Origin: Malacoraja senta
Taxonomy: Eukaryota
Reading direction: 5' to 3'
Assembly (NCBI GenBank): GCA_038087875.1
Contig: CM075985.1
Coordinates: forward strand, 11,780,001 to 11,844,000
DNA length: 64,000 bases
The notes under the pieces were generated by a model, which saw only the letters and a list, made by a program, of their open reading frames with translations, had not been told where the DNA came from and searched no databases. Below, piece by piece: positions 6,946 to 52,308 of this stretch. The translations under genes were made by a program, and so were the position numbers. How positions within the stretch are numbered: position 1 is the stretch's first letter; every line of letters begins with the position of its first letter.

Positions 6946-8163
6946 TACTTCTCCTCTCCTCAGGAAATTGTGGGAGACCTGGTTGAAATTTACGAGTCGT
7001 CATTGAATACAGGAAAGGTGCCGGAAGAATGGAGGGTGGTAAATGATGTGCCACCATTCAAGAAGGGCGGCAGGAATAAAGGAGCTATCCCACTATGGTG
7101 ACCTAATCTGCAGTTCAGGAGAGTTTGCCCTCGACTCATACTTGCAGCATGGTCGACATGAGGTCCTAGGTGGTCCTAGGAGGTGTTTATAAATGGGCTG
7201 TCCCACTTGGGCGATCTAATCCACGAGTTCTGGCAGGTTTGCCCTCGACTCATACTCGCAGCATGGTCGACACGGTGTCCTAGGAGGTCTTTTTAACTCT
7301 CCTTCATGCTGGAGAGTAGTCCCCATGTACTCGAGGCCTCAGCTAGGTCGCAACATATTTTCCAACGATGAAAAATGCCCGCGAGTAAAAAAAGGTCGCC
7401 ATGGAAAAAAACAATACTTTTTTTACTCGTAGGTTTAATCGTAGTAGGTCATAGTAGGTCATAGTAGGTCGGCATGTTATTCATAGGTAATTGAAGGTAA
7501 TCAAGGGTAGTCGAAGGTAATCAAAGGTAGTCGTAGATAATCTTCAACATAGTCGAAGGGAGGTCGAAGGAGATCGAAGGAGGTCGTCTTCACTCTCCAC
7601 TATTCGGTGAAGGCTATGTACTTAACTTTCTCTGTTTCTTTTCCGAGTACAGGCCTTGTGGATGTGATTCGGGAATCAAAGGGTTAAAAGGCTCCTGTAC
7701 CCGATTGGCCAAGCTGCGTCAGGTGACTCATCTGAAGCATAAATACCAGAACTTCCCAGAATTCTCTCTCTTCGACGTCGAGCCTGCCTGTGAGCTGACT
7801 GATGGAGTGAGCTGCAGAAGGCCTGGCCACATGGCATAGAACTTTGTGTACTTTCACAATTACTGATTATCAAATGTTGCATTGGGACGGATAAGGGCTG
7901 ACCTTAGAGTTTTCGGTATTTTGTTTCAGGGTTATATATCTTTAGGCAGGTTAGAGACTCCGGTTCGACGGTCCATCACGTGGCTGGCCGGAGCACGGTT
8001 CAATTGTTTGTTAGTCCATCCATATCCCAGACTGGGTTGTTTGAATCAGGTTTGGGGTTTTTGTGTCCCATTGAAATAATTAAAACTATTTTTGAACTTA
8101 AACCTGGTTTTTGAATTATGTTACGCGGCTCTGAAGTACCTGCTTTCGGGAGTCGTAACAAAA

Positions 8164-8176
8164 TGGGGGCTCGTCC
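8164..8176 (+). promoter_or_regulatory. Primer-binding site (tRNA-Pro) of the Gmr1-like element
   Basis: TGGGGGCTCGTCC directly after the 5' LTR, complementary to the tRNA-Pro 3' end. Confidence 0.88.
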
Positions 8177-11100
8177 TAAGTTTTCAGGACCCCAGACGTT
8201 TTTGGGGGGGGGGTTTGGTAGGCTTCTGGTGACTGAGGAAGTTTGTGTGCTGTGAGGGAAATTTTTCTTCCCTGTTTGTGGTAGCATTGGTGCCCAGGGT
8301 TTAGCTGGTGGTTTGGTGCTACATTTGATATGGAGTCTAAAGGGAAGGAATTTATTGAGGCTCCTAGTCAGGAGTTGTTTGATAAATGTACGAAGGAGCA
8401 TTTGATTTTTCTGGCAGAGAAGTATGAAGTGCCTATTAACCCACAGTCAAAGAAAGTCCATTAAATCGGTGTTGTGGGCTGCATTGGTGGAGGGTGGGGT
8501 TGTGCCTGGCTGTGCAGACAGTCCCACACCTTCTGTTCAGCCTGTTCAGAACATGGAGGCTGTCATTAAACTGAAGGAGATGGAGCTCGTGTCACAGAGA
8601 ATGGACTTATAAAAAGGATGAGCTCATGCATGCTCATGTTCTTGAAATGAGACGGCTTGAGGAGGAAACCAAAAGGGCAGAGTTTCAGCTGCGGGAGAAA
8701 GAATTAGATATGATTATGGAAGACTTTAAAAACTGTCTCCCTGAGAGGGTTACTACTTACCTTAATGAGCAGAAGGTGAATGAGGTGTCTAAGGCCGCGG
8801 TGTTGGCAGATGAGTATGTACTGACTCATAAATCTGATTTTGTTGGGCGCTCCTATAGTTTTGGTGCACGGCCGGTTGATCGTGGTGGTGTCACCGGTGG
8901 CGGTGTCAAAGGTGTTTCTGTGCCTGCAAGTGGCAGCACGTTGATACAGGGGGAGGTCCGAGCTGATAAGGTTGACGGAAATTTGAGGACTAACGAAGGT
9001 CCTGTGTGCTACTATTGTAAAGGGAGAGGGCACATGCTAAAGGCGTGACCCATTCTGAAGCAGAAAAAAGCAAAGCCTGTGGCTTTGGTGGGTACACGGA
9101 AGGCACCTGTGGTACCTGAGGTGCCTGAGTCTGATGAGTGTAGGGATTATTCTGCGTTCATCATGAATGATTTTGTTTCTCTGGAGGATGGGGGCGATAG
9201 AGTTCCAGTATCCATCTTGCGTGATACTGGTGCTACTCAGTCCTTTATATTGGAGAGTGTACTGCCGTTTTCTGGTGAATCATCGGTTGGGTCAAGTGTC
9301 CCTGTGGTAGGATTCGGGATGGATGACATGGTAGTGCCTTTGCATACCGTGAGTCTCGAGTCCGAGTTGGTTTCAGGCCGGGTAACTGTTGGGTTACGGC
9401 CGTGTTTTCCCGTTGGGGGAGTTTCTGTAATTTTGGGGAATGACTTGGCAGGAGGTAAAGTTTTAGTTACTCCTGAGGTGACAGCTGTTCCGATGGTGCA
9501 GAGTCCTGATAGATTGGCTATGCAGCATCCGAGGGTCTTCGCAGCTTGTGCTGTCATGAGGGCTATGGCTAAGAGCCAGGCGAAGTTTGAGGATGTAGTG
9601 GACCTGAGTGAGAGCATTTTGGGGGATCAGGATGATGGATCCTGTGTTGTGAAGGGTGTTTCTACATCTAAAGATGGGATAGTGTCTGAAAATGGGCCGG
9701 TGTCGCTGTCACATGACCGACTGGTAGAAGAGCAAAACAGTGATCCGGGTTTATCTGAGCTGTTCGACTGCGCGGTGCCTGAGGGGGATATGGATTCCAC
9801 AGCAAAGGGGTATTTTCTATGGGAGGGCTTACTGATGCGAAAGTGGTCTCCCTTGGATATATCTGGGCATGATGATTGGAGTGTGGTTGATCAGATTGTG
9901 ATACCTCGTCGGTATAGGGACGAGATACTCGGTTTGGCTCATGATGGTCCTCTGGGTGGACATTTGGGGGTCAATAAGACGTATGACCGTATCTTACGGA
10001 ATTTTTTTGGCCATGGTTGAAAAGGGACGTGAAACAGCAGTGCAGGTGTTGTCACATTTGCCAGGTAGCAGGAAAGCCGAACCAATCGATTGTTCCTGCG
10101 CCTTTATATCCAATCTCTGTGGTCGGTGAGCAGTGTGAGCGGATTCTAGTTGATTGTGTGGGCCCTCTTCCTCGGACAAAGGTGGGCAACAAGTTTTTAT
10201 TGACAATAATGTGTGCGTCTACCCGCTTTCCAGAGGTGGTCCCTTTGCGTAGAATTACTGCCCCTACCATTGTGAAGTCTCTCACTAAGTTTTTTTCGTT
10301 GTTACGGTTTGCCCAAGGTGGTGCAGAGTGACCAAGGTTCCAACTTCATGTCGAAGGTTTTTGGTCAGGTAATGCAGTTATTAAATATTAAACATTGTTA
10401 CTCCAGTGCGTATCACCCTGAGAGCCAGGGAGCTCTCGAGAGGTTTCACCAGACTTTGAAATCGATGTTGAGAACTTACTGCCTGAAGTTTGAAAGGGAC
10501 TGGGATGAGGGGGTTCATCTGGTTATGTTTGCGGTGCATGAGGTCGTGCAGGAGACTTTTAGGGTTCAGTCCTGCTGACCTGGTGTTTGCGCATACGGTA
10601 CGTGGTCCGTTGAGGGTCCTAAAGGAGAAATGGTTGCAGGAGGAAAAAAAATGTAGTATTTTAGACCACATCTGTACCTTTCGGTCTAGACTGAAGACGG
10701 CATGCGAACTGGCAATGGGTAATCTTGCTTCTGCTCAGTCTAGGATGAAGGGGTGGTTCGACAGGAAGGCTTCTAGTAGGAATTTTTCTCCAGGTGACAA
10801 GGTCCTGGTGTTGTTGCCTATTCCTGGTTCCAGTCTACAGGCTCGGTATAACCTATCAGGTGGTTAAGAAGGTTGGTGAAAGGGATTATGTTATTGGTAC
10901 CCCTGATCGAAGGCGAAAGACTCAGCTCTGATAAGTCAACATGATGAAGCAGTACCATCAGCAGGAGCCTGTGGAGGTGGATGGGGAGGTGCTGCGTCCT
11001 TCGGTTTCGTCTAAGCCTGTTTTGGCTGCAATGGTGCTGCCCCCTGACACGGGTGGTAATGTGGGTGAGGCACGGTTGTCAGTGGCACTGACGCAGGGAA

Positions 11101-12192
11101 GGCTGTGTAACTCTGAGGCTTTGGAGTCGCTTCCCTTGCGGCTGTCGCATTTGACTGAAAGTCAGCGGGGTGATCTGCTTGATTTGGTGAAGTCAAATGG
11201 GTCACTGTTCTTGGATGTGCCTTCTCAGACGTCTGTGCTGCAGCATGACATTGACGTGGCCGGTGCTGCGCCAATTAAACAGCATCCGTATCGGGTCAAC
11301 CCTGGCAGGCGTCATCGTTTAGGGAGTCAGGTTGACTATATGCTGCGGCATGGCATAGCTGAACCTAGTTGTAGTCCGTGGAGTTCTCCGTGTCTACTGG
11401 CTATGAAGGCTAATGGGGAGGACAGGTTTTGCACGGACTTTCGGAAAGTGAATGGTGTAACTAAGCCAGATTGCTATCCTCTCCCACGAATGGAGGATTG
11501 CGTGGATCGTGTGGGAAGTGCATCTTTTGTGTCTAAATTGGACTTGTTAAAAGGGTATTGGCAAGTTCCCTTGACTGGGCGGGCGAGGGAGATCTCTGCG
11601 TTCGTTACGCCTGATAACTTTCTGCAGTACACAGTAATGGCATTTGGGATGCGCAATGCGCCGGCAACCTTCCAACGGTTGGTGAACATTGTATTGTCTG
11701 GTTTGTCCTTCTGTGAGGCATACCTTGATGATTTGGTTGTGTGCTCCAGGTCGTGGATCGAACACATCAGTCATCTGAAGGAGGTATTTCATCGTCTAGC
11801 GGAGGCAAAGCTAACTATCAATCTGGGGAAGTGTGAGTTTCGCCAGGCCACGGTAACGTATCTGGGTAAGGTGGTGGGCCGGGGTCAGGTTCGCACTCTC
11901 AAGGAAAAGGTGGAGCATATTGTCGCATTTCCTGCTCCAACCTCGAGGACTGAACTCCGTAGGTATCTGGCTATGGTTGGGTACTATAGGGGATTCTGTC
12001 CAAACTTCTCTGCGGTGGCTGCCCCTTTAACGGATTTGCTGAGTCCGAAGTCAACAAGCCTTTGAACATACTAAAAGTCTTCTGGTGCTCGCACCTGTGC
12101 TTGCGGCACCTGATTTTGAGCGTCCATTTAAGCTGGCAGTGGATGCTAGTGATCGTGGGGTTGGGGGAGTTCTTCTACAGGATGATTCAGAT

Positions 12193-13169
12193 AATAATAA
12201 TAATAATAATAAATTTTATTTGTGGGCGCCTATACCAAAGTCTCAAGGACACCTTACAGAATATAACAGAGAAACATAAATCGGAGTAAAATAAGTTATA
12301 AAAACATGACCAATACACAAATTAAAGACAGAATTCGATTCAAAGACATAAAAAAAATCAGAAACACAATGTGAAGAGAGAGCTGCGGCAGCTAAACCGC
12401 GCAAGCGTCCACGCTCCCTTCCGACCGCCATCTTGGACACAGACTAACATAGACACTACACACAAAAATCATCCCCCCACAATGGTTACCACTGTGGGGG
12501 AAGGCACAATATCCAGTCCGCAACCCCAGTTCTCCCCAAAGTCAGGCCAATTGAGGCCTCCGCTATTACCTCTACGGAGGCCCGATGTTCCTGGCCGTTC
12601 TCGCCGGGTGCAGTTGCCCCGGCGTCGGGAGAGTCCTCGCAGCGGCTGGGCCACCTGGAACGGCCGATTCCCTACCGGAGTCCGTGGCCTCCGAAGCCGA
12701 CAAGGCCGCGCCGGTTTGGAGCTCCCAGGCTCCTGATGTTAAAGTCGGCGCCGCCCGCTCCTCTCCGCAGACCCGCAGCCCGGAGGTGTCGAAGTCGGCG
12801 GTCACAGCTCACCGGAGCTCCAACGCGTCGATCCAGCGCGGCGACCCAGGCAAGGCATCACCCGCTCCGCTCCGCGATAGTGCCCCAGCGCTGTGCCGCC
12901 ACCGAAGCCGAGGTGCTGGGCGGTCCCCGTCAGGAAACGGCGCTCCATGCCCGCTGGTAGGCCACGAGGACGGGTCGACGGGGCAGCCAGGAGAAAAAGC
13001 TGCCGCCCCGACCAGGTAGGGACCTAGAAATAAGGTTACCCCCTTCACCCTACATTAAAAGACGATATCTCCCACAGACAGTACATAGGACGCACTAAAA
13101 CTGCAAAAAAAAAGTGAAATAAACGGACGGCTGCTGATTAGCAGCCGTTCCCCAAGATGGCTCCTCCTC
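12193..13169 (-). mobile_element. GC-rich non-autonomous non-LTR element with an L2-like 3' end, inserted in the Gypsy RNase H
   Basis: It interrupts ...LLQDDSD|GVEHPVSYFSKK, has a (TTA)n tail at 12193-12211 and is flanked by GAT on both sides. Confidence 0.75.
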
Positions 13170-15750
13170 GATGGGGTGGAGCATCCAGTTTCATACTTCT
13201 CTAAGAAGTTTAATCAACATCAGAAGTGGTACTCCACCATTGAGAAAGAGGCCCTTGCTATGTTGATGTCTCTGAGTCATTTCGAGGTTTAAGTTGGCTC
13301 CTCGAATGTCCCTGTCATCGTACTCACGGATCATAATCCGTTGGTATTTTTGCATAATATGAAGAATAAGAACCGGCGGTTAATGAGCTGGAGTTTGCAG
13401 CTGCAAGACTACAACCTGGAGGTCAGGCATATCCGCGGCAAGGATAATGTCTTGGCTGACGCCTTGTGGAGTTTAGCTCATGAATAGTTTCTGGGATTTG
13501 GTGGTGTTTTTTTTTCTCTCTTCTTCCAAAACGTATTCAGTATCTTTGGGTGGGGGTGGTAGGCATTTCCGAGTACAGGCCTTGTGGATGTGAGTCAGGA
13601 ATCAAAGGGTTAAAAGGCTCCTGTACCTGATTGGCTAAGCTGCGTCAGGTGACGGGTGACTCATCTGAAGCATAAATACCAGAACTTCCCAGACTTCTCT
13701 CTCTTCGACGCCGACCCTGCCTGTGAGCTGACTGCTGGAGTGAGCTGCAGAAGGCCTGGCCACATGGCATAGAACTTTGTGTCCTTTCACAATTACTGAT
13801 TAACAAATGTTGCATTGGAACGGATAAGGGCTGACCTTAGAGTTTTCGGTATTTTGTTTCAGAGTTATATATCTTTAGGCAGGTTAGAGACTCCGATTCG
13901 ACGGTCCATCATGTGGCTGGCCGGAGCACGGTTAAATTGTTTGTTAGTCCATCCATATCCCAGACTGGGTTGTTTCAATCAGGTTTGGGGTTTTTGTGTC
14001 CCATTGAAATAATTAACACTATTTTTTAACTTAAACCTGGTTTTTGAATTATGTTACGCGGCTCTGAAGTACCTGCTTTCGGGAGTCGTAACAGTAGGTC
14101 GGCATGTTATTCATAGGTAATTGAAGGTAATCAAGGGTAGTCGAAGGTAATCAAAGGTAGTCGTAGATAGTCTTCAACATAGTCGAAGGGAGGTCGAAGG
14201 AGATCGAAGGAGGTCGTCTTCACTCTCCACTATTCGGTGTCCAATTTTCCCGAAGCTAGTCGAAGCTAGTCTTCAACATAGTCGAAGGAGGTCGAAGGAG
14301 GTCTTCTACATAGTCGATGGAGGTCTTCAACATGATACTTTTTCAAACATTCCTAAACTCTTCTGAACTCGCGGATTAGGTCGCCACAGTGGGGCAAGCC
14401 CTTAATGCTGGCAACTATAGGCCAGTGAGCTTAACATCTCTAGTTGGAAAGTTACTACAGAGAATTCTGAGGGATATGAAAAACTTTCATTTAGAAGGAC
14501 AAGGGCTGATTAGGAATAGACAAGATGGTTTCGCATGTGGGAGGTCGTGTCTCATGAATCTGATTGAGTTTTTTGAAGATGTGACCGAAAAGGTTGATGA
14601 GGACAGAACTATAGATGTTGTTTCAATGGACTTTGGCAAGGCATTTAACTAAGTTCCATATGGTAGATAGTTGAATGGATAGAAAATTGGCTTCATGGAA
14701 GGAAGCAGAGGGTGATGGTGGAAGGTTGCTTCTCAGGCTGGAAACCTGTGACCAGTGATGTGCCTCAGGGCTCAGTGCTGGGCCCTTTTTTGTTTGTCAT
14801 CTATATCAATGATTTGGATGAGAACATACATGACAAGATTAGCAAGATTGCAGATGATACAAAAGTGGGTGGTATTGCAGATCGTGAAGATAGTTGTGAA
14901 AAATTGCAGCAGGATGTTGATCAGTGGCCCAGGTGGGTTGAGGAATGGTTGATGGAATTTAATACAGGGAAATGTGAAGTGTTAAATTTTGGGAGTTCCA
15001 ACAGGGCAGGACCTACACAGTGAATGGTAGGACTATGGGGAGTGTTATAGAGCGGAGGGATCTATGAGTGCAGGTACATGGTTCCTTGAATGTGGAGTCA
15101 GAGCTAGGGCTGTTAAAAAGGCTTTTGGCACACTGGCCTTCATCAGTCAGAGTGTTGAGTATAGATGTTGGGAGGTCATGTTACTGTTATATATGTTGGT
15201 GAGGCTGCATATTGTGTTCAGTTCTGTGCACCATGTTATAGGAAATATGTTGTCAAACTGAAAAGGGTACAGAGAAGATTTATGAGGATGTTGCCAGGAC
15301 TCGAGGGTCTGAGCTAGTGTGAGAGGTTGAGTAGGCTGGGATTCTATTCCTTAGAGCACAGTATGATGAGTGGTGATCTTATAGAGGTGTATAAAATCAT
15401 ATGAGGAATAGATCAGGTATGTGCACCAAACCTCTTGCCCAAAGTAGGGGAATTGAGGACCAGACGACATAGGTTTAAGGTGAATGGGAAAATATTTAAT
15501 AGGAATCTGATGGGTAACTTTTTTTCACACAAATGGTGGTGGGTGTATGGAAGGAGTTGCCAGACGAGGTAGTTGAGGCAGTTACTATCGCAACGTTTCC
15601 GAAAAAGTAGGCCAAGTACATGGATAGGGCAGGTTTGGGGGGGCATCTGTGCCAAGCTACGGGTGGGGCTAGTGTAGCTGGGACATGTTGGTCGGTGTGT
15701 GAAAGTTGGGCTGTAGGGCCTGTTTCCACACTGTATGACTCTATGACTAT

Positions 15751-15925
15751 CGATGAACCAGAGAGGGACTGAGGGGTGGATAATGTGAGGCTGTTTTGTC
15801 TGTCTGGAGAGCCAAGTACTGGGGTAGTGTCAACATCTTTGCATACCCAGCAGGCAGAGGTATTCCTGCGTTCAGTGAACTTATAAGCCAAAGCTAAAAA
15901 CTGGTTAAAACCATCTACTGCATTT
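15751..15925 (-). pseudogene. Retroviral env SU N-terminal fragment
   Basis: GFNQFLALAYKFTERRNTSACWVCKD matches the N-x-F-L-x-L-A...N-x-S/T-x-C-W-V-C pattern of gamma-type env proteins. It is cut off by the CR1 tail. Confidence 0.72.
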
Positions 15926-16418
15926 GAAGTACAGAAAAAGTAAAATTCATGCAAGAGTGACCATCAACCTCTGGGTGCAATAGTTGTTGAAAATTCACGC
16001 ATTAAAAAACCCATAATATAATGGTTCAGACAGATCTTCCTCTGAACGGAGGACATAAGCATTTTACATTTTGTAACATTTCAGAAAAATTACTTTTACA
16101 ATAAACTGACAGAAAGCAACTTCACATACATCACATTCCCAAAGTTAAACCCATTTCATGAAAAAGTATGGAGAATAAAACACCTCTACCTGCCTACAGT
16201 TCTTGGTTCAGATTACACCATGTGACAAAATGTGGCCAGGGAAAAGATGTATAAAACACAAGTTAAAGTTATCTAACTCTGTGCAAAAGCAGATGCTAAA
16301 AACGTAAAAAGGGGAAAAGGAGGTTTATCCTAACTTCAAAATAAGTCACTTTCATAGTTTGAAATATACAACCGTACTAGAATCTGTACAGACTAAAAAG
16401 TTTGTTATTATACAGATT

Positions 16419-16742
16419 TCAGTCATTTTCTGACAGTGTTTTCTTCCGTTTATACTGTTTGTTTTCTTGCTGGAGTTCCAGATTTTGGGCTCTCAGTTTC
16501 TCAATCTCTGCATCCAGTTCTTGAAGCTTGCTTTCTATCAACTCACCACCCCGGGCCACCTTTTTCCCTTCTAGACGTCATCTCAGCCGGTTGTTCTCAT
16601 CTTCCAGCCTGGACAGGCACTTCTCCAGCTCCAGGTACTTGTGGATCAGCTCCTGCTTGCTCATGTTCTGCAGGCTCTCAGCGTGATACTTCTCGTATGT
16701 CTCAGAGAAGTCCTTCTGCAGGAACTCACTGCCGTTGTCTCC
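16419..16742 (-). pseudogene. HEXIM1: HEXIM (HEXIM1-like) C-terminal coding fragment (cyclin T-binding coiled coil) with one premature stop, followed by probable 3' UTR to ~15930
   Basis: GDNGSEFLQKDFSETYEKYHAESLQNMSKQELIHKYLELEKCLSRLEDENNRLR*RLEGKKVARGGELIESKLQELDAEIEKLRAQNLELQQENKQYKRKKTLSEND*. This closely matches HEXIM1 GSEFLQRDFSETYERYHTESLQNMSKQELIKEYLELEKCLSRMEDENNRLR. In-frame TGA at 16578-16580 and natural stop at 16419-16421. Confidence 0.95.
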
Positions 16743-16932
16743 TGTTTCCAGAAATACCTTGTCTGCCGGAGATCCAGACGGGACTAGGGGGTCACCCAAT
16801 CGACCTCTCTGATCTCTTGTTCTTCATTCTCCTCTATTATTTTATTATTATTTTATTATCCTGCTGCAACTTTCTGCCTGGTCATTTTAGAAAATCTTTC
16901 TTACCTTTTCCCGACGAGCTGGAGGTTTCCAT
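16743..16932 (-). pseudogene. Putative gag N-terminal stub abutting HEXIM
   Basis: ATG at 16932 gives METSSSSGKGKKDFLK*, one substitution from a myristoylation-type MGTSSS. After a frameshift, RGRLGDPLVPSGSPADKVFLET runs in frame into HEXIM. The call rests mostly on its position after the PBS and leader. Confidence 0.5.
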
Positions 16933-17261
16933 TTTGGTATTTTAAACCACAAATCTTAAACAACTAAAATATAATGGCTATAATTTCTTACTCTATCTTA
17001 CTATTTTCAGTCATACTCTAACTCTTAAATTAACCTTCTAAGAGCTCAGTTCATAAAGTCCCCACTCCAAATTCCAATCCTTTTATCTTTTACTTAATTT
17101 CACTTAAATTTAGTTGGGGTCTATTCCTCAGTCCCTGTTTTCCTTTACCCTTCCTCTCATGGGATATTTTTCTTCCCGTACCGTTCTGCCACAGGTCTGG
17201 GTCACGGCTGGTATTTCTCCACCGTGCAGGCATTTCCATGTCCGGATCTCATTTGTTAGGG

Positions 17262-17279
17262 ATCCTGCCGACTACGCCA
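17262..17279 (-). promoter_or_regulatory. Retroviral primer-binding site, tRNA-Ser
   Basis: Minus strand reads TGGCGTAGTCGGCAGGAT, an 18 nt complement of the tRNA-Ser(AGA) 3' end including CCA, 2 nt downstream of the LTR terminal CA. Confidence 0.93.
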
Positions 17280-17281
17280 GG

Positions 17282-17655
17282 TGGTCAGAGAAATCAATCG
17301 AGGACTCCGACTTCTGAAGAGCGAGACTTTATTACATGAAATCTCAAAGGAACTACTCCGGGAGACAGTTCCTTCACAGTACAGATGGCATGGGTTTATA
17401 TACTGCTGAACAAACAAGTATATGTGCAGACTAGCCCAGACCTCACTCAGTTCCTTAAACAGCTTAGTCAGGGCATTACGATTTTATCGAAAATGCCTAA
17501 ATTACAGATAATAACAACACGCACAAAGAAACAGAAATCTGTGCTCAATGCTCCAATGATTCTGCCAAGGCTTTCTTAAGAACAAGGCAGCATCTGTAGC
17601 TTCGCAACACGTATCATCAAGCAGAACAGGTAAAATTTTGCAAAATTCTGTCACA
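17282..17655 (-). mobile_element. 5' LTR of the HEXIM-carrying ERV
   Basis: Minus strand TGTGACAGAA...CTCTGACCA, with TATATAAA (17395-17402) upstream of AATAAA (17328-17333), directly followed by the PBS. The outer boundary is inferred from the TG start. Confidence 0.82.
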
Positions 17656-20357: not shown

Positions 20358-23300
20358 CTAGAAGCAGGAAAAGAGAAAAGCATTTACCTGTTAGTCCACA
20401 AGCAAAATGCTGCAGATGCTAATTATCTGAAAGAAAATGCTGGAAATACTCAATAGGTCAGGTGGCATGTGTGGAGAGGAAACAAGGAAGTCGTTGTTGG
20501 AATTTTTTTCTCAGTTCCTCTCTCCACAGATGCTGCCTGATCTGCTGAGTGTTTCCAGCATTTTCTGTTTTCCGTTTGGTCTAAATGTTTCATCTACTTG
20601 AGTCAGAGTCTGTGAGCCATTAATGTTCCCGGACTCTTGATCGGTGAGTTTGCATTGTAAATAAAGGGAGTCACTTCCTGTACACTATATACACTTCCTT
20701 ATGCATGCTGATAAGGAAGGAAGGAAGGGAATGTGGAATGTAGCTTACACTTTGAAGCTTTAATGAAATGACCTGTGTCTGAGGAGCAGTAGCAGCAGCA
20801 ACAGAGAGAGAGAGAATATTAAAAACCTTTCTTACTATAAAATAAGTATTGATCATTAAGATCAACAAAGAGGCACCTGTATTATAATAAGACAAGTGTT
20901 GTGACTAGATCCCTGATGAATCCTCGAATAACCACATTTCCCATGAAATTGAGAAAATCCATAAGGTTGGCAGTGACATTCATGGGACAATGAAGAAAAT
21001 GTGAGCTGCTGGCCATTAAATTGGTTTGGTGGACATGGGTACTGTGTTACATTATGGCTCTATCTTTTTATTAATCATCGCTCTGATTTTTATTGTTAAC
21101 TGCTTGCAACCATTAGGCACCTACCGAGGAAGTAATGTTATCATAAATGATAAAGAGGAAGGAATGAGAAAGTTTAAAGATTTAAAAGTTACAAAATGGA
21201 TTCAGCTGTAGATTTAGAAGCAATAAAATGGATGCTTTCAGCTTTCTCCTATTACATTAGCAAGGCTGCAGCATCATAACAAACATGTTTTCGCCCTTCT
21301 TCCATAACACTAGTGAGATAACAGCACAAATACATGGATGTTTTTCTCTATGATATAAACAATCAAGAGAATGTTCAGACATTTGGCTCGTACCCTTTAC
21401 AGTACAAGATTGTAATGTGCGTCAACAAGGTAAAAAAACGAATGCTTGAATCTGCATCTTTTTAATGAAATGCTTGGGCTGAGATTAATGCTCCACGTAC
21501 AAATGCTTTAAATGTTTCCCAGAGAAGGGAAGCAGAAATTCCGGGGTGGTCATTAGCCTCAAAAAACATATTAATCTGTTTTATAAGGTATTCATGACAT
21601 ACCTTTTCCTTTAAAATTTGGGGGTTAAGTCTCCATTGTGTATGTTTCTCGGCCATTCCGTTTAGTTTAATCATAAATCATAATCATAAATGTTAATGGT
21701 GCATGGTCCGAGATTATAATATTATGATATTTCGAGTTGTAGGAAAATGGTAAGACTTTGGAGTCTATTAAGAAATAGTCTATCCTTGAATAGGTTTTAT
21801 GCACTGGTGAGTAAAATAGTAAGATTAAACGAGAACTTACCAGTTTGAAGTGATCTTTATTTTATGAGGAGTTACGATGAGCGATTACGTGAAGAAGGCC
21901 GTCAGCCCGCATGCGCGTCAATCTTCAAAGCAGCGGTGTGAAATGACAGATAACAGTTGTTGAACTAAACATAGTAAGATTAGAGAGGACTAGCAGATGA
22001 TCTTTATGATATGAGGGTTGGGAGCGGAGGGCACATAATCGCTCATCGTAACTCCTCATAAAATAAAGATCAAACTTCAAACTGGTAAGTTCTCGTTTAA
22101 TCTTACTATTTTACTTCGGAGTCACGTGAGTGACTACATGAAGATGTTAAAGCTCTGTGATTTAATGCCGTGGATACATGCGTCACACACTGCATCAGTT
22201 GACCAGGATGAGTGAAAATAATTAATGCATTCAGACATGACATAGACAAAAAAGGCTGATGCTTTAATAATCAAAGAAAATAATAGTGACCCCTCTCATC
22301 CAGGGGGGAACTATAAAACAGAACCTAAAATGGAATTAGCAAAAGCCCCGGTCTGACAATAGGTTTGTTATAAAACCTTTGGAAGGTCAGTTCATTAGAC
22401 CATCCTGCAGCCGCTAGGATGTGGTCGAGAGGGACGTCCATATCCCTCGCTGCTGACGTAGATGCAGCCCTGGTGGAGTGAGATTTTAAAATGTCTGTGT
22501 CCATCATGAAATGGTCTGCGCTGTAACCTTCCTATGAGGTTTTGTGTAGCTGATGAATAAAGATAATTCGGAGCCTCTGAGGCTCTTAGTGACCTTGATG
22601 TATTGTAGTATGTGTGTAACTACACACAACCGTAGGTCTAAGGGGTATGCCATAAAAATTAATTTGAGCCCCGACACCCCTGGTCTGCTCTGCTTAATTA
22701 AATCATAAACAAAAAAGGTTATATTATCAATAGATGAAACCATGCAGTCCAATCGTAGATTATGTAACGTCTGGACCCATTGCGCTGAAACCAGCGCCAT
22801 GCGCAAGACCACCTTGAGAGTGAGATTGGGCAGAGACAGTGATGAAACTGGAGCCCACTGGCGAAGCAGCGTGAGTACCATGCTCACATCCCATATCCGT
22901 GAATATCGGGGCCTTGGGGAAGTAGAGTTAAAAATGCCCTTCATGAATCTGGTTATTAAGGGGTGAGACCCGACAGTGTGGTGTCCTGACCCCAGCCATA
23001 AGTAAGATGATAATGCACTCCTAGCACTATTTATGGCACTATAACTCAGTTTCTGTTCGTAGAATAGTGTAGATAGGAACTCCAACACATCCGTAATGCA
23101 AGCCGTGTCATACAAAATTTTCGAGAGAGAGAGCAGTACATCTCCCATTTCCTTATATGAGAGATGTACTGTTTCTGGGTACTCTTCCTCCAGGCCGCAG
23201 TGATCACATCTACCGTACGATCTGAAAGTCCGAGCCCCAGGAACGGTCTCCTCAGAATCTGCAAACCAATAAATTGATTCGGTTATGTAGTGGATGGTTT

Positions 23301-26300
23301 TCCCCGTCACAGGGTGAACCAGCAGATTTCTGCTTTTGGGGACAGCCATAAAAGGCTGTGTAATCATACCCAGGACGAGTGGGAACTAATGCTGTGTAGG
23401 CCAGTCTGGTACTACTAAAATGCCAGAGGCGGAGTCTTGCTTGATCTTAGCCAAGCATCGACTGATGAGGCAAAATGGGGGAAAGGCATACAAGAACTTT
23501 CCACCCCAGTGTAGCGAGAATGCATCTACTGCCACTGCCCCTGGGTCTGGTTCCCATGAAACATATTTTGGTAACTGGTGATTTAGTCTGGATGCAAACA
23601 AATCGATTTCCGGTACGCCATACCGAGCGACAATGTCATTAAACACTTCATGATTCAACATCCATTCTGTGTTGTCATTGAATTTCCGTGACCTGGTGTC
23701 CGTCACCATGTTATATCTACCTGGTAAGTAGATAGCTGAAACCCAGATGTTTCTCCTAATCCACCAGTGCCAAATAAGGTTAGACAATTTATCACAGGAT
23801 ACAGACTTAATTCCACCCATGTGATTAATGTATGCCACAATGTAGTGTTGTCAATCTGAAGTTGAACATGCACATGATGCAAATTGCCACAATAAGCCTT
23901 CAGCCCACAGAGTGCTCCCAACAACTCTAAGTAGTTAATACCATGTGACTGAAGAATTAATGATTTCTGCATATTCCATCTGCCACCGCAGCTTGAGACG
24001 GTGTTGGTAGCACCCCATCCTAGAGCACTTGCATCAGTATGTAGGATAACTGGTGGTGTATCGACTAAAATTGTACTGGAGCAATGTCGAATATTGGTCA
24101 CCCACCATTGTAACTCAGCAAAGGCTTCAGCTGGCAACCGCATAGGTCTACCGAAGTGACCTTTATGAAGTTCGAGTGCCTGCTGCTTATCACATTGTAA
24201 GTTTTGATAGTGCAAAGGCCCGAACTGTGCAGCTGGGAAAGCAGCCACTAATTTGCCAATTATACTAGCCACTTGTCTAATAGAAGGTTGGTCCTTAACA
24301 ATGAGATGGTTACAGGCTTCAATTAATTCTAATTGCTTGCCCCAAGGCAGAGTCACTGACATGTGAATTTAGTTAATGGTGAATCCCAAATAATCAATTA
24401 CTCTAGATGGTATCAATTTGGATTTAACTGGATGGATGAGGAACCCCAATCTCTCAAACATGAGTTTAGTAGCTGACACAGATAATTCAGCTAATTCCAT
24501 AGTTTTCCCTATTAGGATGTCATCCAAGTATGCCATCACAATATGATTCTGAGCCCGGAGTAGCCCCAGAACTGGTTTTAGAAATTTAGTGAATAATCTG
24601 GGGCCTGAGGTTAACCCATTAGGCAATGATTTAAACTGCCACAGTTGCCCCATCCAGCTAAACTTCAAATATCTCCAGTGATCCCCATGAATGGGCACCA
24701 AATTGTATGCATCTTTGAGGTCGATGCATGCCATATAACATCCCTTGGAAACCAGTTGTTTGGCCAGTAACAAAGTTTTCCATTTTGAAGTGTTTATACT
24801 GCACAAAGGTGTTAAACTCAGTCAAGTCAAGGATGATTCGGCATCCTCCATCCTTCTTTTGGTTAGTAAATATATTGGACACAAATTAGTGAGACTCATG
24901 ACACAACATCTCAATTACCCCTTTTTTGTGTAATGATTCTATTTCAGCTTGCGCATCCGCACACTCCTGTTGGGAAAGAACAAATGTGCGGTTCGGTGTA
25001 TGCTGTGTGGGTGGAAGCGAATTGAGAAGGAACTCAATTTGGAAACCTTGTATACTGTGCAGTATAAATGGATCTGATGTTATCCAATGCCATTCATTCA
25101 AGAAACATTGTAATCTCCCCCCAACTTGTAACTGATCCATAAACAAAGTGTTCCGCAAATAACCAGACTCACCTACCTCAATAGTTACTGGTGGTATGGT
25201 GTTTGTTTCCGCCCCCGAGGTTTGGGGGGTAGGACTGTTGGAGGGCGCCATCCGCGCATCTTGAACGTGGGCCGGCTAGGGCCTTGCCCTAAAAAAGGCC
25301 TCTGAGCCTGTTGTTCGGGCTTCCCACCATATTTGGCGAACCATCTGGTGTTGGGAGGAGCGTAGGGGTGCTGCCTCCGGAAAGATGAAGTCTTGGAAGA
25401 TGTTGGAACCTTCATAAGCCCGACCGTTTTAGCTTAATCATCCAGCTCCCTGACCTGCTTCGGCAGATCTTCGCCGAACAGGAGGGTCGGTGGTTGCCTT
25501 TGGAGCATATCATTTTGGAGCAACCTCTCCATCAGGTGCTCCATGTGGGTTAGTTGCCCATAGATGCTACCCATTGAAGGAGGGGAACCCTCCTGGCCCG
25601 ACTCGTCCGAGTCCACGGGCCTAACAGACTTCTTGGTGGCTTTCCGCCCCAGCGGGGTAGCCAAGGTGCTTTCAATCGGCACCAAGTCTGGAGCCGCTGG
25701 CTCCACTGCCAGCGACCCGGAAGGCGAAATCGGCGGCCGCCCGCTACCCGCAGTCCCACGGTCTTCTGTAGCCGGTTTCCCCGCGGCCCGCCTCTTCACT
25801 GTAGACATAGTCTCCACACGGTTCAAAACTTTCTGTAAGTAGAGTTAACGAACCGGGAGCAATGACCTCAGAGAGAGTTTAAGCACTTACCTGAGAATTT
25901 TAAACTTACTGCTGGAAGGAGCGACGCGCCCGCCAGTCAGTCATTGCGCAATGCGCTAGACGTAATGACGCGCATGCGGGCTGACGGCCTTCTTCACGTA
26001 GTCACTCACGTGTCTCCGAAGTAAAACAAGGTGTACAGAGTTGCTTATTGGTTACAATCTGAGGAGTATGATGATGCTACTGATTATGATATGCCAATGT
26101 ACAAGCTAGCAACTGATCTTCTCCATAAAGACTTGGTCTATTGCTAGAAATTTTAATTTATTTACCTATCTGTTATGGACTTACAGCATATTATACAATA
26201 ATATTAAAGTTCTGATCTTGAGAATATCACATTCAACCCTACAAATCCTTCACAGTGAGATCGGCCCCAGGTTGGTCACCCCTCAATCTTCCCTCTTGTG

Positions 26301-40600: not shown

Positions 40601-42783
40601 GAGGCATCACTTCTGCAGACATGGGCAATTAACTATGAAGAGGTTTTAAGGACAACGCTTATTGCTCTAACAAATGTATCTGCATGTTCAGTTTCAGATT
40701 GACAATACAATGCAAGTGGCATATATATTAATCACATCGGTGGAAACAAGTCGGAATTTTGTGATAGATTGGCTAATCAAATTTGAGCCTGGTGCATTGG
40801 AAAAGATATTTCAGCTATTTATCTACCAGGTAGATTCTACATAGTAGCAGACGCCAAGTCACGAACATTCCATGACAACATAGATTGAATGTTCAACAAG
40901 GAGGTGTTCAATAATATAGTACTTGTATATGAATGCCATATATCGATTTGTTTTGCATCAAGGTCAACCATCAGATGCCTAAATAGGTTTCATGAGAACC
41001 AGACCAGGTGGCAGTTGCAATTAATACTTTGATGTTGAGGTGGTATATAATTTTTTTTCTATTTTTTTTTTCTTCCTACCATTTTGCCTAATATGTCAGA
41101 GTCTGCAAGAAATCAAGCAGGATGCCACTTTGGGGATGCTTGTAATACCTAATTGGCCGAATCAAGCATAATTTCCTTTTGATGTTACAGTTAGGGATCC
41201 AACCTCTTTTTGGTGGTTCCCAAGCGTAGGAATTGACTGGAGCATCCGCTAACACGGCAAAGTCATCTATTATGTGATTGTATTGACTTGTTAATTTGCA
41301 GGTTTTAAGAAGGCCATACCTGGAGCAAGGACTGTCTGGGTTTACGGTGGACATGCTCACTGTAGCCTGGAGAAAGAGTACTCAAAAGGGGTATATTACT
41401 TATGTAAAAAAATGGGACCAATATTGTGTACAAAATAATATTGACTATAATACTACAGGTATTGTGGATATTTTAGAGTTCCTGTTGACCCTCTATGATG
41501 ATGAGGGGCTCAGTTATAGCACCATTAATACAGCTTTAAGTGCTTTGTCATCCTGTGGGTTGCATGGGGTCAGGAAAGATCCTATTGAGTTTTATCATAT
41601 CATAGCTGGATTGATGAAAGGAATTTCAACTCTAAATCTCCTAAACCCAGGTATATGGCGATCTGGGATGTGTGCAAGATGTTTCGACAGTAGGTTCCTG
41701 GCATGTCTCTGAATTTGCCAAACTAATCATGAAAGGGGTTATGCTCTTGGCATTGGTTCAGCATAGCAAGTGCAGATTTTGGGGAAAAAAATTCTGCTAG
41801 ACAGGATGGAAGTTGCTGAAGAGAATGTTATGTTATATAATTGCGTACTGCTTAAGCAGAGCAGGCCAGGTGTCACAGGTTTGTTAAAATTGTGTTTCAG
41901 CATAACCTACTGATCCATGTTTATGTATAATGGCACATTTATTTTCATTATATTAAAGCTATAAAGATCTTAAGGAATGTGGAAACAGCATTGTTTATCA
42001 GTTACATGAAGCCACACACGAGAGTGTCAGTGCAGACTATCTCAAGTTGGTTTAAAGCAAATGTTGATTAAGGCAGGTATTAACACTGAAGTGTATATAT
42101 CCGTTTTCCACTAATGCAGCAGCAATGTCGTCGGCTAGGACGATGGATGTTCACAGCGGCCATAGTTTATAGGTGCCGGGTGGTCAAATGAATTATTTTT
42201 TTAAAAAATTTACCATCGGCCGATTGCCTATTGGGGAGAGGCTGTTTGCAAATTCAGTATTAAGTCCTGTTTAGTTCCTCTGGGATAGACGGGTTACTGT
42301 TTGTTTTCATTATTCAAATCAATTGTTATTGCATGATATTACCATTTCATGTTTAACGCATTATTGATTGTTTCTCATCGAAAGTCAATCAATGCAGTGA
42401 GGCCGGGATTTACATCTGCGGCATAAAATCACAGAGCTTTGAAATCTTCACGTAGTCACTCACGTGACTCCGAAGTAAAATAGTAAGATTAAATGAGAAC
42501 TTACCAGTTTGAAGTTTGATCTTTATTTTATGAGGAGTTACGTTGGTGATTACGTGCCCGCCACGCCCAACCCTCTCTCATAAAAAAGGTCATATGGTAG
42601 TTCTCATGTTGCTCATCTTAATATGTTACTTCAATTATTGTGTTGTCTGTGATTTCATTCCGCTGCTTTGAAGATTGACGCTCATGCGCCCTGACGGGTC
42701 TTCTTCACGTAATCACCAACGTAACTCCTCATAAAATAAAGATCAAACTTCAAACTGGTAAGTTCTCATTTAATCTTACTATT
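37676..42783 (+). mobile_element. DIRS1-type retrotransposon (copy D), both ends present, heavily decayed
   Basis: 5' TTTTACTTCGGAGTCACGTGAG, YR N-terminus at 41296-41712 (GLSYSTINTALSALS), ICR and terminal inverted repeat at 42445-42783. Region 39170-39600 is similar to copy B 5040-5430. Confidence 0.93.
38042..38435 (-). mobile_element. CR1/L2-clade LINE 3' fragment nested in DIRS copy D
   Basis: FYKMLNG...RSRRGHS...YSNSFFPRTIKAWNNL, followed by a (CCAAGAA)n tail. Confidence 0.8.
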
Positions 42784-51647: not shown

Positions 51648-51703
51648 CCACCCAAATAAGCCAATTTTCTATCTTCTTCTTGCGTATGGCATGCACAGCC
51701 TAA

Positions 51704-52308
51704 AGGGCCTGTCCCACGAGCGTGCGACTGCATGCGGCAAGCGCGACCAAACCGGAAGCGGGGGCCGCACGGAGGTTGAGTGTTCCCCGTACAGGGCCGG
51801 TCCCACCAGCATGCGACTGCATGCGGCGAGCACGACCAAACCGGAAGCGGGGGCCGCACGGAGGTCGAGTGATCCCCGTACAGGGCCGGTCCCACCAGCA
51901 TGCGACTGCATGCGGCGAGCACGACCAAACCGGACGCAGGGGCCGCGCGGAGGTCGAGTGAGTGACATGAAGTTCGAGCGAATTCCGCGGGACGTTCGCG
52001 CGTAACGTATGGCGTCAAGACGCTGCATATGGTGTCAAGACGCTGCGTACAGCGTCGAGACGCTGCGCACGCCCGTTGAGGCGGTGCGTACGGCGTCGTG
52101 GCGGCTGCGGGCCGGCAGGCGGTTGCCGCGCAGAAATTTTGAACAGTGTCAGTTTTTCGGAGCCCCGCGCGATGTCGGGACCAGCTCCGCACAACTCCAT
52201 ACGGCTCCGGCGATCGAAGTGGGACCGGCCACGCGAGGCCGTATGGCTCAAGCAACCATGGTAGGTCGCGCTTGCCGCATGCAGTCGCATGCTCGTGGGA
52301 CAGGCCCT
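51704..52308. mobile_element. Complete Harbinger-like MITE
   Basis: TIRs AGGGCCTGTCCCACGAGC...GCTCGTGGGACAGGCCCT, TAA duplication at 51701-51703 and 52309-52311, internal ~90 bp tandem repeats. Confidence 0.88.

Follow-up and report, generated by a model that had tools for sequence, protein, structure and literature searches.

The window, the whole stretch of 64,000 nucleotides that was analysed, carries on its minus strand what is, judged by its sequence, a defective, non-autonomous endogenous retrovirus (ERV), class I-like by label, in which a captured HEXIM insert replaces most of gag, all of pol and the start of env. The element opens with a 5' LTR of ~375 nt (17282..17655; TATA-like sequence at 17402, AATAAA at 17333), which matches both LTRs of a copy on C4 and the 3' LTR of a copy on C7. 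Behind it lie a primer-binding site (17262..17279), which we take to be of the tRNA-Ser type and which recurs downstream of the LTR in related ERVs at four of eight loci, and a retroviral leader (16933..17261) common to the duplicate of the element on C9 and to C7, C6 and C8 copies. There follow a broken N-terminal gag remnant (16738..16932), whose last 26 codons are in the HEXIM frame, the captured C-terminal coiled coil of HEXIM (16419..16737) and ~570 host nt of HEXIM 3'UTR (15888..16418). Past a 3' capture junction marked by host-virus microhomology (15886..15905), the stretch 15840..15887, which has a CWVC-like motif, is presumably the start of the env surface region. A plus-strand, CR1-like LINE remnant (14380..15750), also present in the C9 duplicate, cuts off the element near 15750, and no 3' LTR of this copy was found in the window.

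The missing part of the element can be read from its relatives. In the C7 and C4 copies the HEXIM UTR is followed by an internally deleted env that extends to its end, a polypurine tract and the 3' LTR. Pfam recognised none of the six frames of the env remnant, and the env label comes from position, motifs and homology, including a match to a HEXIM-less relative on C1 (C1:112750600-112755400). Many other repeats break up that locus, which keeps remnants of RNase H, the integrase end and env as well as a related 3' LTR; the 30 kb upstream of it yielded neither a 5' LTR nor gag. In related ERVs, Pfam identified protease, RT and RNase H. A search with a pol piece returned a common repeat. The LTR itself gave 49 matches and belongs to a family of old solo LTRs with 5-bp target duplications: internal sequence was present at none of 20 further loci that were fetched, and at least eight of the 20 have a 5-bp duplication with at most one mismatch, a count made by eye, the scripted census having recovered both LTR ends at just two loci.

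Other repeats in the window include a plus-strand Gypsy-like LTR retrotransposon (7458-14239) with SCAN-like, zinc knuckle, RT and integrase matches, terminal repeats that are 95-99% identical, and broken frames. There are also DIRS-like elements (22400-25850 and ~40680-41710) with RT and tyrosine-recombinase N-terminal matches, a MITE-like family with 78-79-bp terminal inverted repeats (1157-1519, 1826-2187, 21810-22172 and 42400-42783), and an 89-nt GC-rich repeat present three times in tandem (51701-51967).

The HEXIM segment and the peptide upstream of it

The minus-strand frame 16823-16419 (RTRDQ...ETGDNGSEFLQ...LSEND*) opens with 26 codons foreign to HEXIM and then runs into the C-terminal domain of this protein; the frame matches Pfam HEXIM (positions 95-142), and its HEXIM part matches the human HEXIM1 C-terminal structures 2GD7 and 3S9G (E 9e-26). 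The host parent at C10:20367106 is an intact, intronless gene of 286 aa, with KHRR at residue 78 and PYNT at residue 128. Host homology in the window runs from 16737 to 15888 and covers residues 182-286 and the 3'UTR to a point ~340 nt short of the first AATAAA in the host. Neither PYNT nor the 7SK-binding basic region, both present in the host gene, is found in any captured copy, and the acidic region is likewise missing from the captured part. An earlier note on this DNA had held that only the cyclin T-binding coiled coil of HEXIM was taken, and this is borne out. It had placed the start of homology at G-D-N; in fact the G-D pair lies on the viral side, and the host match opens with the N codon (16737). 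The first residue to contact cyclin T follows four codons after this break. Its description of the HEXIM part as carrying one lesion, a TGA derived from CGA, stands in its first half: the 105 C-terminal codons contain one internal TGA (16580-16578) and no indel relative to the host gene, but CGA occurs neither in the host nor in the two other copies that cover this position.

Two intact, intronless HEXIM genes lie 35 kb apart on C10, and the captured tail matches C10:20367106 only. The tandem genes (C10:20331291-20331850 and C10:20366831-20367420) are near-identical from the basic region to the first helix and differ in their C-terminal tails, a pattern that suggests gene conversion between them.

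The peptide preceding HEXIM is likely the N-terminus of Gag, a label that comes from position, motifs and homology. When the 47-aa upstream peptide of a C7 copy was used as a query, the genome returned 14 matches, five of them copies of the family and nine weaker loci. At the eight weaker loci that were fetched, the GDPIVPPGSPAD motif, to which the gag remnant is homologous, lies ~50 codons into the first ORF, with protease and RT downstream. The upstream peptide of the window itself matches the first ORFs of related ERVs (E 1e-5 within the local set). The sole protein match, among 135 candidates, is an uncharacterised horn-shark protein, P0001, which begins with MG, contains PPPY and is identical to the window peptide at 16 of 24 positions; a starting MG and PPPY are motifs of Gag. 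Pfam recognised no Gag in any of three frames of one related ERV (L078) or in the horn-shark protein, and neither of two candidates matched when the 47-aa peptide was compared with longer proteins. Because the 26 upstream codons match both the Gag-like horn-shark protein and the N-terminal end of the first ORF in related ERVs, we regard the in-frame Gag-HEXIM junction as real. The fusion architecture proposed earlier is upheld both by this homology and by a junction shared among every copy that retains it. Another old ERV family (e.g. C8:23247185 and C12:1037369; loci L075-L085) shares the element's primer site, and the Gag-like product of its first ORF again has the horn-shark protein as its only protein match; several of its copies have internal gag deletions.

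Copies of the element and the state of the fusion frame

Six loci carry HEXIM within the element: the window, a C9 copy 115 kb away, two on C7 and one each on C3 and C4. The C9 copies have kilobases of flank in common and represent one insertion that was later duplicated, the two C7 copies have no colinear common flank, and the C4 copy retains two LTRs, at a K2P distance of 0.205 from each other, with a 5-bp target duplication. Flanks of the C9, C7 and C4 copies differ from one another, and we count at least three independent insertions of a pol-less element by comparison of these loci. The 5' gag-HEXIM junction is identical in all five copies retaining that region and the 3' junction in four of four; the HEXIM capture likely happened once. 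In each of the three other organisms examined (runs X3, X8 and X13), a single contig spans the 3' junction into C9-specific sequence at ~91-92% identity, which makes both the capture and the C9 insertion older than the split of these organisms. A further contig (run X2, same organism label) over window positions 15722-16489 differs at 40 letters and 22 gaps in 752 and may represent the C9 duplicate or another copy.

None of the six present copies has an open start-to-stop Gag-HEXIM frame. In the window, non-HEXIM sequence does run in frame into HEXIM, as the earlier note had stated, but for 26 codons only: a TGA at 16823-16821 closes this stretch and further stops lie beyond. The ATG at 16932 is out of the HEXIM frame and meets a stop after 16 codons, the only in-frame ATG (16664) is internal and lies behind the cyclin T contact residues, and both C9 copies have a frameshift between the gag start and the junction. 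The window copy can no longer be called a near-intact fusion, given these upstream stops and the frameshift, and the ATG-to-stop fusion ORF that had been envisaged was open in none of the individual copies. The C7 copies keep the start region in the HEXIM frame despite a deletion and are broken at other points. A search for an annotated Gag-HEXIM fusion protein gave 81 matches in the set of 50% representatives and, in the 90% collection, matches to 29 of 44 candidates; not one extends over the gag part. Eleven candidate fusion proteins were inspected and set aside as ordinary HEXIM fragments or unrelated repeats, among them a Mustelus HEXIM1-like protein without gag.

Selection on the cargo and the origin of the capture

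Pairwise NG86 dN/dS values over the HEXIM part are 0.26 for the window and C7 copies (p 0.0003) and 0.40 for the C9 duplicate and C7. NG86 takes no account of transition bias and so exaggerates selection in these pairs, and changes were therefore tallied branch by branch. Comparisons with the C4 copy gave 0.51-0.60, which is not significant, and the window and its C9 duplicate gave 1.02; values of 0.09-0.30 for copies against the host were set aside, the host branch itself being constrained. The branch counts cover 273 coding and 383 UTR positions, after removal of sites within 4 nt of indels and of five unassignable sites. On the C9-C7 lineages before the C9 duplication there were 13 synonymous and 14 replacement changes, as against 2 and 16 after it (Fisher p 0.012). 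The synonymous share before duplication differs from a neutral share of 0.29 with p 0.027, and from 0.32 with p 0.059. A replacement deficit is concentrated on the C9 stem, with one replacement where 8.1 are expected from the UTR (p 0.016), or three against 8.6 when three-state sites are included (p 0.09). On the C7 branch there is no replacement deficit (11 vs 10.1 expected), and all pre-duplication branches together have 14 replacements against 18.7 expected (p 0.36). The dN/dS check on the cargo thus yields a divided answer: the shift around the duplication and the C9 stem deficit speak for constraint, but the C7 branch and the C4 comparisons do not. We take the branch counts to suggest a phase of constraint on the HEXIM cargo, a hint rather than proof, and consider the chances of a translated and selected phase of the fusion to be about even.

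A neutral history of the same capture is a serious possibility, if one we hold to be somewhat less than an even bet. HEXIM would then have been a passenger, its frame and breakpoint matters of luck, and the element would have needed no more than its LTRs and packaging signal to spread. An in-frame junction has a 1-in-3 prior, no copy retains an intact fusion, replacements show no deficit against the UTR either on the C7 branch or overall, and LTR-mediated retrocopies with microsimilar junctions are described as common in animals (PMC5131818). Against luck stand the synonymous excess before as compared with after the duplication (p 0.012) and the position of the junction: the joint chance that it should fall between PYNT and the first cyclin T contact and also keep the frame is ~6% (54/286 codons x 1/3), a figure for an outcome chosen after the fact. 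The low copy number of the HEXIM-bearing element was also counted against a selected fusion.

The concentration of the replacement deficit on the C9 stem (1-3 vs ~8) could instead mean that the host used the C9 copy after integration, as an LTR-driven short HEXIM that was later lost. The HEXIM part of the window copy is free of indels and the insertion was retained in three other organisms, as such use would allow. Yet the upstream frameshift is present in both C9 copies, no usable in-frame ATG precedes the cyclin T contacts, changes private to the window number one synonymous and four replacement, and dN/dS between window and duplicate is 1.02, and we judge this course of events improbable. 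Given the same shared frameshift, the branch with the replacement deficit must in part postdate the loss of the fusion.

With respect to origin, the host sequence in place of viral genes, the microhomology at its 3' edge and its later amplification identify the event, on comparative grounds, as retroviral transduction of a host gene. The window shifts from host-like to virus-like over 15905-15886, where 13 of 19 letters agree between the host UTR and the HEXIM-less C1 relative. Random pairs did as well in 20 of 200000 cases, and the alignment is the best of ~20 offsets. There is no poly(A) at the end of the captured UTR. Together with a UTR that ends before the first host AATAAA, these features fit template switching at a site of microsimilarity, which very probably took place during reverse transcription. 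LTR-mediated retroposition by microsimilarity-dependent template switching has been described (PMC5131818). A processed HEXIM pseudogene made by a LINE and landed inside an ERV is highly improbable: the host coding region is already intronless, so that intron loss could not reveal an mRNA origin, but poly(A) is lacking, the UTR ends ~340 nt before the first host AATAAA, and the insert replaces viral genes from gag to the start of env with microhomology at its 3' junction.

The sequence of events that we favour would begin with template switching that joined the last third of host HEXIM, once and in frame, behind a Gag N-terminus. The pol-less element would in all likelihood have spread with a helper virus, and the fusion may have been translated and weakly selected during that spread. 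Possibly it acted as a decoy that paired with host HEXIM, which would free P-TEFb. To the reading as a whole, a dead, defective ERV with a third of HEXIM behind a likely Gag N-terminus, captured once, with a fusion likely translated and weakly selected and possibly acting as a decoy, we give roughly equal odds of being right or wrong.

Possible function and comparison with known systems

A membrane-directed Gag N-terminus would disfavour a nuclear role, which is a point against decoy action. The captured piece corresponds to the domain of human HEXIM1 (254-359) that dimerises and binds cyclin T1 (PMC12901311), as seen in 2GD7 and 3S9G, although in the window copy the domain is interrupted by a stop and comes without the basic region, PYNT and the acidic region. 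Of the residues in that domain, F262, F267 and H275 are required for cyclin T binding (PMC4227133); these contact residues are kept in the captured segment, as are all of the F262/F267/Y271/Y274/H275 positions. A longer fragment, HEXIM1 181-359, gave no repression in human cells, and binding of P-TEFb by the human HEXIM1 PYND mutant is impaired in vivo (PMC1183248). These human data suggest that fragments like the captured piece bind P-TEFb poorly in cells. From the 181-359 and PYND mutant results, the fragment would not be expected to inhibit, and pairing with host HEXIM would be likelier than holding P-TEFb; decoy action through such heterodimers rather than through direct P-TEFb binding is itself rather doubtful. 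The fullest form of the proposal, in which a simple retrovirus of ancient skates took exactly the HEXIM dimerising coiled coil and a predicted Gag-HEXIM decoy broke the 7SK-HEXIM brake on P-TEFb, as HIV achieves with Tat, we consider unlikely.

To our knowledge, few gene captures by germline retroviruses have been documented. The crocodilian elements CrocERV29 and CrocERV31, which captured KIT-ligand and nectin3, respectively, and for which purifying selection was reported, resemble the HEXIM element as an ancient ERV lineage with host coding sequence in several copies that predates speciation (PMC4299795). Their cargoes, as described there, are near-complete ORFs that lie between pol and env or replace env, whereas here a C-terminal domain sits on the gag start and pol is gone; the HEXIM element also has few copies, all of them broken, and a weaker selection signal. 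LTR-mediated retroposition offers a second parallel, with host sequence in sense orientation flanked by discontinuous LTR-element sequence and short similarity at the fusion point, but the process is described mostly for young copies (PMC5131818), and the HEXIM capture is ancient, re-amplified and found in a cartilaginous fish. Old ERVs are known from this group (PMC4422223).

The organisation of the captured reading frame has a counterpart in the gag-onc viruses. Defective, helper-dependent, acutely transforming retroviruses carry the gag N-terminus in frame with a truncated host gene that lacks its regulatory part, and the HEXIM element likewise joins a gag start, without a shift of frame, to a shortened host gene. 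It differs from them in carrying part of a transcription inhibitor rather than a proto-oncogene, and it is a germline fossil known from sequence alone. The v-kit of HZ4-FeSV is mentioned as a case of the gag-onc kind (PMC4299795). Gene capture by ERVs is a known phenomenon; in the literature that was searched, HEXIM was not found as retroviral cargo.

P-TEFb is the kinase on which lentiviral transcription depends, and HEXIM is its regulator. If the fusion was not selected, the element remains a clear fossil, present in several species, of transduction in the gag-onc manner, with both junctions and the parent gene known. If it was, the HEXIM/P-TEFb switch would have been targeted by retroviruses of cartilaginous fish long before Tat, and by another route.
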